From contig JAVKOQ020000058.1 in NCBI GenBank assembly GCA_031835245.2, forward strand, positions 124,001 through 188,000: 64,000 nt of DNA. The letters run 5' to 3'. The stretch's first letter is position 1. Each line of letters starts with the position of its first letter. Below the pieces are notes generated by a model. That model searched no databases, was not told the origin of the DNA, and saw only the letters and a list, made by a program, of their open reading frames with translations. Below, piece after piece: positions 5,880-7,940 of this stretch. The stretch is from Balamuthia mandrillaris. Taxonomy: Eukaryota. The translations under genes were made by a program, and so were the position numbers.

Positions 5880-7940
5880 ATGGCGAGCAACAAGACTAGC
5901 GCCACAAGGTCTTGCCCGCCTATCACCCGCCTTGTTGTACAAAACTTCCGCCAATTCGAGGAGCTTCCTTTGTCAAATTTGAGATGGGCCAACGTGATTA
6001 TGGGCGCAAACGGTTCTGGCAAGACCTCTCTCCTTTGGGCGATCATCGTTGCACTCAGGAGTTACAACCTCCGCACAGCTCCCTCAAACCACAAGGCCTC
6101 TGCTTCCGTTCAGATACACCCGCTGGATTTTGCCAAGCTCATCAACGCTCCTCAGCTTGGAGGTGCCTCATCCTGGGGGCACATCTCGCGTCATGGTGCT
6201 GCCGAACCCACTCTCATCCACGCGACCATCAACAACCGCTCCATTTGCTGGGAAATCAAAGCAGACGACCACAATTAAGCGACAATAGCAAAGGTTCATC
6301 TGAAGAGCCCCTTCCCCCAACAAAAGTTCGTTTTGCGTTCATGTCTGAGAGTGACTTCGAGATAGCCAATGAACAACAGTTGCCTGGTGACATCTTGACC
6401 TCCTCTGCCCGTGGTATTCGACAACGCTTTAAACACCTTGAAAAAAAGAATGGTAGTTTTAAGGTTGGTTGAAGCTTTTCTGTTGCTGTGTTCTCAAAAA
6501 TACATCACTCATAGTTTATACTTTGTCTTGTTGTGCTGTTTAGGGAATGGTCTCAAAGCATATGAAGGACTTGTTTGGCATCCATAGTCTGCGCCTTGGA
6601 GAAGAGTCGGGCCTTCCAACAGTCAACTTCATTATTTCAGAAGGAGACCATGAGACAGAAATAATTCATACCGGAGAGGCTCTTCGCAAGGTCTTCACTT
6701 CATTGGTGCTGTTTTTTACCCTTGTTGCCACAGAAGAACAGGAACGAGTTTTTCTGGTGGAAGAGCCCGAAGCCCATCTTTATTCATCCCTACAGAAATC
6801 ATTTGCAGAGCTACTTCTTCGTTTGGCAAAGGAGCATCATGTTCAGTTGTTTCTGACTACCAACTCAAATATTTTCCTAGAAGCAGTTAAGGTAAGTTCT
6901 TTGCTTTGTTCTCTTTTCTGTAGTTGCTCTCTTTCCTTCCCTCCTCTCCATTCTTCTTTCTCGGATAGCTGTTTGTATCAGGTTTTTGTCTGCCATTGAA
7001 CAGGTTACACGGCCTGCAGTTCGCTGAAGAACCACAACATGCTTCGGCTAAAGTAATAAGAAGTACCAATATTAAGATGGAGACAGAAAAAAGTAAAAAC
7101 GAGAAAGTTCCTCTGCTAGGCATCAGTGATTTGAACCCGCTTATCCTTGTAGAAGGAGACCAGGACCTTCTTGCTGTTTGCAAATTTGCAGAGCTGTGTA
7201 ATTTACAGGTTTCACAAGCCCAGCTACTGGTTGGTGCCACGTTTTTGAAGAGTGACCACTTTGCACCACTAGTGAAGTCTATTAACAAACTGCGTCCAGG
7301 TGTGGCGACACACGTACATGTACTTCGTGATCCTGATTTTTATATGTTTGATATTGAGCAAAAAGCAAAGGAAGAGAGCAAAGGTATGTTATGTTGGCTC
7401 TTCATTAACAATCTATTTACATTTCATCCCAACAAATCTTTAGCAAACGTGAAAGTTTTTTATTGGAACCTGCCCTCCATCGAGAGCTTTTACTTCGTGT
7501 ACTGGTGCTACCTGAACCGGGACAAGGATCCCTTTGTTATCCTTCGCGATCCAAGTGTGCTGCAAAAATTGATGGCGAAATACATGACCAGTGTTAGACA
7601 ACAAAACCCTAAACAACAGGAAGAAGCTGTGGAGCTTGCTTGTGAAAGATGGATACAAGCCACGAAACTGCTTGATAATCAGAACCCCACACTAGAAGAT
7701 ATTCAGGCCGTGGCTCGTATAGTGCATGGCCACACTTGGCTTAATAAGTTCAGTCAAGGCGAACGGGATGGACGCTACCATGGAATACCAACCCCGGCTG
7801 CAGTAAAGAAGATAGACAAGCGCATCCTAGAACCTATTCCAGAACTCCAGAACTTTATGTCTGCCCTCATCTCATCTCCCTCTCCTTGTTCTTCTTCTTC
7901 TCACCCAAAGAAGAGCAAAGGAAAAGAGAAGCAAATTTGA
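5880..7940 (+). CDS. OLD-family-like ATP-dependent nuclease (AAA_15/AAA_21-type ABC ATPase + TOPRIM), 3 predicted introns, one apparent frameshift at ~6275
   Basis: N-terminal ITRLVVQNFRQFEEL; Walker A IMGANGSGKTSLL; signature-like TGEALRK; Walker B/D-loop FLVEEPEAHLYSSLQ; H-loop position QLFLTTNS; TOPRIM LILVEGDQD and VLRDPD; downstream SIESFY. Frame-compatible introns 6464-6543, 6892-6968 and 7384-7443. Confidence 0.8.

Follow-up and report, generated by a model that had tools for sequence, protein, structure and literature searches.

Whether an amoeba can carry a working ATPase-TOPRIM nuclease of the OLD/GajA type is the question raised by a gene on the forward strand of Balamuthia mandrillaris contig JAVKOQ020000058.1. 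The gene is located at 5880-7940 of the window, by which we mean the whole stretch of 64,000 nucleotides that was analysed. An original prediction, made from the sequence, had described it as an intron-containing gene of this architecture and as a candidate antiviral effector.

Gene Layout and Motifs

The gene and its interruptions are composed of the following features.

5880..6278 (+): ORF A, the N-terminal half of the ATPase (132 aa), with Walker A at 6003-6026 and matches to AAA_23 and AAA_15; the frame is ended by TAA at 6276-6278
5900..6463 (+): -1 frame, open for 188 codons, with homologous coding from about 6270 and with AUG 5984, the gene's second
6264..6275 (+): frame break, where homology leaves the ATG frame and continues in the -1 frame
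6464..6543 (+): intron 1, 80 nt, GT-AG, with a joint in RNA run X1 at depth 18.6
6544..6891 (+): exon 2, the C-terminal half of the ATPase, with LVEEPEAHL at 6754-6780 and the H-loop TTNS at 6856-6867
6892..6968 (+): predicted intron 2, with a GTAAGT donor at 6892 and an assumed acceptor at 6968
6969..7383 (+): exon 3, linker and TOPRIM core, with E at 7152, D at 7164 and DxD at 7329/7335
7230..7299 (+): 70-nt GT-AG segment inside the TOPRIM coding sequence, skipped by part of the RNA
7384..7443 (+): intron 3, 60 nt, GT-AG, with a joint in X1 at depth 30 and in 1 read of run X4
7444..7940 (+): exon 4, with SxE at 7476-7484, the helical domain, HGHTW at 7725-7739 and the stop at 7938-7940

The motifs named in the original prediction were all recovered in their places, from the N-terminal strand, which reads VVQNFRQF, to LVEGDQD (with the E at 7152), RDPD (7326-7337) and SIESFY (from 7476) in the C-terminal part, and they went beyond chance as judged by the Pfam matches and the shuffling test given below. 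The Walker A, Walker B, D-loop and H-loop motifs of an ABC ATPase were all present, but spread over 2 frames in the window copy. Walker A and Walker B lie 223 residues apart, unlike in SMC/Rad50-type proteins with a long coiled coil. The predicted metal ligands, namely E, D at +4, DxD at +59 and SIE, were also present and were invariant or nearly so across the family alignment.

For intron 2, the candidate acceptors were 6968 and 7019, which are in frame, and 7003, which is out of frame. The linker would contain 73 residues with the acceptor at 6968 and 56 with that at 7019, as compared with 59 in the 3 closest relatives. The NCBI annotation covers the C-terminal part alone, as a 267-aa model starting at AUG 7077, and the spliced C-terminal product is KAL6068927.1, a hypothetical protein of B. 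mandrillaris of 267 aa. Intron 3 is missing from the annotated protein P0123.

Domain Architecture and Predicted Fold

Pfam matches over the cut-off were obtained to AAA_23, AAA_15 and SMC_N in the N-terminal half of the ATPase and to AAA_15 and AAA_21 in exon 2. In PADLOC, the ATPase parts matched the AriA, GajA and PtuA profiles, and the C-terminal ORF had a single match, to the GajA model (E 0.046), on the TOPRIM stretch. The best PDB sequence matches of exon 2 were Ts OLD (6P74, E 0.033) and GajA, and those of the C-terminus were uninformative. The Pfam TOPRIM model PF20469 had no match on the window and only weak matches on 2 of the 19 relatives scanned.

A profile of 29 bacterial OLD TOPRIMs, selected by the E/DxD pattern so that the invariance of those columns is built in, scored the C-terminal region at 15.7 bits, from the E through the DxD, and this score was equalled in 0 of 2000 shuffles. 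A TOPRIM profile from a Pantoea-like bacterial family gave no match, with 120 of 1000 shuffles scoring as high. An AF2 model of the C-terminal part, built with 34 family rows, reached a pLDDT of 89.3 and a pTM of 0.85 (the pLDDT from the single sequence was only 37) and consisted of an α/β core and a helical bundle. Foldseek ranks 1 to 5 were OLD C-terminal regions (best E 4e-4, TM about 0.3). The top match in VIA was PH0156 (Z 9.3, rmsd 3.8, 165 aligned) and the best characterised structural match was AriB (Z 9.2, rmsd 5.8, 205 aligned), with lower values for Bp OLD (Z 7.2, rmsd 4.5, 159 aligned), Ts OLD (Z 6.9, rmsd 4.2, 128 aligned) and GajA (Z 5.9, rmsd 3.9, 143 aligned). Rows 2 to 17 were OLD, AriB, retron or GajA TOPRIMs, and unrelated rows had Z values of at most 4.5. 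The structural Z-scores were middling, and the global TM-scores were about 0.3. The top match in the ESM Atlas (score 0.94) was a cluster with OLD-like_TOPRIM on 20% of its members, and the viral fold library contained nothing at E <=0.001.

The TOPRIM fold expected in the C-terminal part was thereby supported by AF2, Foldseek and VIA. With the Pfam matches to AAA_15, AAA_21 and AAA_23, the architecture is confirmed as an ABC ATPase (AAA_15/AAA_21) followed by an OLD-type TOPRIM and a helical domain.

Relatives and Phylogeny

A phmmer search with 7128-7937 against 1.84 billion representatives (E <=0.001) returned 31 matches, which comprised the gene's own product, 1 spurious repeat protein (P0150, dropped) and 29 environmental relatives. 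All 19 relatives that were looked up came from JGI, Logan or ENA, their representatives lying on contigs of 0.9 to 4.6 kb, and the near-complete ones contained 523 to 559 aa. The closest relative, P0155, was 41% identical over 563 columns (E 7e-125) to the X-bridged conceptual product of the window copy; it matched the GajA profiles of PADLOC at E 1e-20, and the AriA and AriAB profiles also scored high. The motifs EG-x2-D, RDxDF, WxLPxIES and HGHTW were conserved in the family, as was an HGH/GRT motif in its helical domain.

The predicted His-to-Asn change in the H-loop is present as TTNS, but is nothing special, being found in 18 of the 19 family sequences caught by the pattern and, within a bacterial family, in 6 of the 120 proteins listed, and being presented in passages of PMC7049728 as a natural variant of class 1 OLD. 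A stand-alone ATPase-TOPRIM protein with an H-loop Asn was separately noted in Pantoea (L003:1296-2861), and no TOPRIM Pfam annotation was seen among the best 120 of the 391 matches that make up its family.

Two relatives contain insertions exactly at intron positions of the Balamuthia gene. That of P0149 begins with KVS at intron 2 and that of P0128 with KGM at intron 3, which are the letters of read-through in the Balamuthia gene. These 2 proteins and P0152 have insertions or a truncation at the intron 2/3 positions, like retained introns read by a gene caller. From the insertions we infer that the intron positions are probably shared, and hence that the hosts of the relatives would be eukaryotic.

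A family profile searched over 401 genomes of 1 bacterial phylum gave only partial matches, the best of 52 bits and extending to position 191 of 304, so that no donor can be named; several of these matches were PF20469-bearing ORFs. No relative of exon 2 or of the C-terminal region was found in the viral, metagenome or GTDB contigs searched, and exon 1 gave only 1 weak Walker A match per search. Nothing was matched by exon 2 or the C-terminal ORF in word-index protein searches, or by the C-terminus among plasmids, and a phage search with P0155 gave 2 partial matches.

In a tree of the ATPase core (51 rows; 22 dropped because the motif patterns failed), the 4 family rows formed a 99/97 clade. 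A 98/93 branch separated the family from 12 housekeeping ATPases (5 SMC, 5 RecN, 1 RecF and 1 SbcC, none of them a eukaryotic Rad50 or SMC), in agreement with the view that the ATPase does not group with such families. The tree does not settle the place of the family among the OLD-like lineages.

Transcription and Splicing

RNA from 4 runs, X1 to X4, was compared with 5880-7640. X1 showed GT-AG joints for 6464-6543 and 7384-7443, and it is therefore RNA-derived and the gene spliced, with introns 1 and 3 removed in RNA. Since 2 introns are spliced and the C-terminal part is the named Balamuthia protein KAL6068927.1, the gene is eukaryotic, as predicted, and not a bacterial contamination. The joint of intron 2 was bridged by none of the RNA records, which left a hole at 6771-6965, with record 2 beginning at 6966. 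Of the 3 frame-compatible GT-AG introns originally proposed, the first and third are thus real, but the second is unbridged and the frame itself breaks at 6264-6275.

The word depth in X1 was level, at about 18.6, from exon 1 through exon 3. Segment 7230-7299 was skipped at a depth of 7.2 versus 8.9 unskipped, and this skipping shifts the frame before the DxD, with the frame ending soon afterwards. X3 and X4 contained 4 and 6 reads, respectively, among 12.9 million records each. Two X3 reads of at least 99% identity reached across the break, which was too few for an indel listing, and 2 other X3 reads, less than 90% identical, hint at a more diverged transcribed copy.

Frame Break in the Window Copy

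The frame from ATG 5880 stops at TAA 6276-6278 after 132 codons, ahead of Walker B, and coding resumes after the break in the -1 frame, from which alone the downstream exons are clean. In a switch-point scan against 3 intact relatives the best score was at 6270, and ORF A matched the intact relative P0155 at 48% up to 6266, as compared with 50% for exon 2. A sequence scan of 6200-6293 revealed no GT that could start a bridging intron. The break is not common to the relatives: P0155, P0144 and P0151 cross this point in one ORF and have the ATPase and the TOPRIM in a single polypeptide, which the stop at 6278 prevents in the window copy.

Record 1 of X1 spans 5880-6461 with neither a gap nor a differing letter, and is the same across the break, which therefore exists in the transcript; the proposal that the window copy is an intact effector is consequently not supported. 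X1 is possibly from the same isolate as the assembly, and the break may thus be strain-specific; X2 stops short of it. An error of sequencing or assembly in an intact gene, which a single lesion of indel type might suggest, is highly improbable and largely refuted by the gapless spliced short-read RNA contig, the 2 X3 reads across the break and a site outside any homopolymer run.

We consider it likely that the window copy, a transcribed and spliced OLD-like gene with its frame broken before Walker B, is a recently inactivated allele or a young pseudogene. Because the frame breaks early, it likely makes no working enzyme, and ribosomes would produce only a 132-aa Walker A fragment. The break looks recent, since the catalytic motifs are all intact and the end branch of the window copy in the ATPase-core tree (0.40 versus 0.34 for P0155) reveals no acceleration yet. 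A null allele is also indicated by the lack of a slippery site or stimulatory fold, by the absence of the break in relatives and by the tolerance of aberrant splicing, whereas the presence of a spliced transcript despite the early stop and the open -1 frame with its second AUG count against it.

Among the alternatives, a stand-alone nuclease seems improbable, though the best placed of them: the TOPRIM-helical part (267 aa, AUG 7077) would act in the manner of AriB and be regulated in trans by the ATPase of another copy. This would agree with the NCBI model of this part alone, with AriB as the best characterised structural match, with the intact motifs and with the finding, given in passages of PMC6755086, that the OLD C-terminal region by itself nicks and cleaves DNA in vitro. 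However, the level X1 depth from exon 1 to exon 3 gave no sign of an internal start (contigs cannot show starts), there are many AUGs upstream of 7077, and an unregulated nuclease would probably be toxic.

A functional split gene appears very unlikely. Leaky scanning past AUG 5880 would lead to an overlapping ORF from AUG 5984 with the ATPase C-terminal half and the TOPRIM, and hence to 2 products that form one enzyme. The -1 frame, open from 5900, is stop-free for 125 codons upstream of the break, with stops in 0 of 25 at-risk junctions versus 32 of 135 in other exons, and with a chance probability of 0.00025 by within-exon permutation (the frame-openness tests leave out the PPR rows, which were in the wrong frame). 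Moreover, AUG 5984 is the second AUG and has G at -3 and +4, the X1 contig reaches just 19 nt upstream of 5880, and the break falls between the 2 halves of the ATPase. Yet with host codon context the probability of the open frame rises to 0.014-0.033, the first AUG also has a strong context, the second copy has CTG at the equivalent place, the relatives are single ORFs, and there is no in-frame AUG between 5984 and 6341, so that a stepwise opening of the frame would have brought no intermediate benefit. As an aside, the GC3 over 5900-6275 (+) was 0.63, as against 0.38 to 0.48 elsewhere in the gene, a hint that its 5′ part may be mosaic or have been converted.

A programmed -1 ribosomal frameshift, yielding the full-length enzyme at a low level, is hardly tenable. 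The break is carried in the transcript and the motifs are all intact, but no in-phase slippery heptamer was found near 6264-6275 (the sole one in canonical phase, at 5975, precedes Walker A), there is no stable fold downstream and no unusual RNA structure around the break (z from -0.75 to +0.97), and the relatives do not conserve it.

Comparison with Known Systems

OLD-like genes that contain introns and have expanded in copy number have already been described in eukaryotes, with a function that is predicted only (Maaroufi 2026, bioRxiv 10.64898/2026.08.18.745644, which cites Krishnan et al. 2020). The main text of that preprint covers SAR, chytrids, Capsaspora and invertebrates, and names no Amoebozoa, pseudogene or frameshift. 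Literature searches, which took in the main text of this preprint, gave no report of an amoebozoan OLD. In the published proteins, as in those studied here, an ABC ATPase and a TOPRIM are encoded by a single gene, the introns and the copy number vary, GajB is lacking and the metal A and B motifs are the same; the published proteins contain 577 to 844 aa versus 523 to 559 for the near-complete relatives here. The family is likely a new amoebozoan/microeukaryote branch of this known eukaryotic kind.

With class 1 OLD (P2 Old and Thermus scotoductus OLD, PDB 6P74) the gene shares a single-gene organization without a helicase, the D-loop His, the degenerate signature, the H-loop Asn variant and the E-x3-D, DxD and SxE motifs. 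The ligands of metal A (E, DxD) and those of metal B (D/E+4, S/TxE) have been defined for Ts and Bp OLD, according to passages of PMC7049728 and PMC6755086. Unlike class 1 OLD, the Balamuthia gene has a helical domain after the TOPRIM, as in class 2; the identity is about 13% by structural alignment, and the gene is spliced and its window copy broken.

The fold of the TOPRIM and helical domain is shared with class 2 OLD and Gabija GajA. Unlike in Gabija, no UvrD-like helicase GajB adjoins the gene among the neighbours within the window, and the helical domain has the conserved HGHTW, which may or may not correspond to the catalytic basic residue (R487/K562) of the OLD family. An Erwinia pyri plasmid was seen to carry, ahead of a UvrD helicase, an unannotated gajA-like gene (L001:1850-3450) that is itself split across 2 frames. 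PARIS, which provides the top characterised structural match (AriB), divides between ATPase and nuclease, whereas these are fused in the relatives studied here and the break in the window copy is inside the ATPase.

Predicted Function of Intact Members

If P2 OLD, GajA and PARIS are a guide, the intact members would, somewhat more probably than not, have a role in defence, in which the ATPase keeps the two-metal TOPRIM (E-x3-D, DxD, SxE) closed. Infection might be sensed through foreign DNA structures, through a viral protein or through falling nucleotide levels, and the released TOPRIM would cut tRNA or DNA and so halt the infected cell. P2 OLD is reported to be a tRNase that is gated by its ATPase and responds to DNA structures (10.64898/2026.07.10.737580), its Walker A and Walker B mutants to lose function in vivo (PMC7049728), and amoebae to have domesticated other bacterial immune proteins (PMC13142454). 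The archaeal OLD-family ATPase Cran1 is reported to act in the cell cycle and not in defence, so that a non-defence role is possible; a housekeeping role in DNA metabolism or the cell cycle is, for the intact members, a considerably less probable reading.

The boldest version, in which an undescribed intron-bearing OLD-like clade (H-loop Asn, HGHTW) occurs widely among microbial eukaryotes and serves as an abortive tRNase/DNase against giant viruses, and in which one Balamuthia copy has turned into a functional enzyme of two parts, translated from overlapping ORFs of a single mRNA, must be regarded as very doubtful indeed. The likely gain is that the eukaryotic range of OLD-like nucleases is extended to Amoebozoa, which giant viruses naturally infect, through a family of about 30 clusters that is missed by the TOPRIM model of Pfam and annotated merely as a 267-aa hypothetical protein. 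Its intact members provide a direct route to testing prokaryote-type ATPase-TOPRIM immunity, so far only predicted, in eukaryotic cells; the window copy is probably not the one to assay.

Second Copy and Genomic Surroundings

The predicted duplication was borne out by a second copy, and 2 features lie upstream of the gene.

1..230 (-): second copy, cut off by the window edge, with 96% identity over 197 nt
240..2990 (-): decayed LTR-retrotransposon remnant with protease and RT/RNase H (RT_RNaseH_2, E 7e-20; Asp_protease_2)

The second copy is identical over the equivalent of 5990-6139, with a degenerate first strand, and is truncated-looking. The retrotransposon remnant, which from its motifs we take to be of the Ty3/gypsy type, sits between the 2 head-to-head copies and abuts the second. 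Duplication and loss beside such a remnant would fit the birth-and-death turnover of a costly immune gene. The spacer between the head-to-head copies at 3000-5800 is AT-rich, contains several dispersed inverted repeats and is possibly an old inverted duplication.

The downstream neighbours are a synaptobrevin-domain gene and a 2-hydroxyacid dehydrogenase. Farther along the window we noted a 1717-codon open frame with bactofilin-like β-helix repeats followed by a LamG-domain exon at 19986-26405 (+), a CRT-like (chloroquine-resistance transporter-like) gene at 28338-31220 (-), and a PPR protein with E, E+ and DYW deaminase domains, a factor of the organelle RNA-editing type, at 56848-59838 (+). 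The gene at 40821-56189 (-) encodes a cytoplasmic dynein heavy chain, which served as a lineage marker; its best PDB match, at 933 bits versus 831 for the next group, was to 3VKG, the Dictyostelium dynein.
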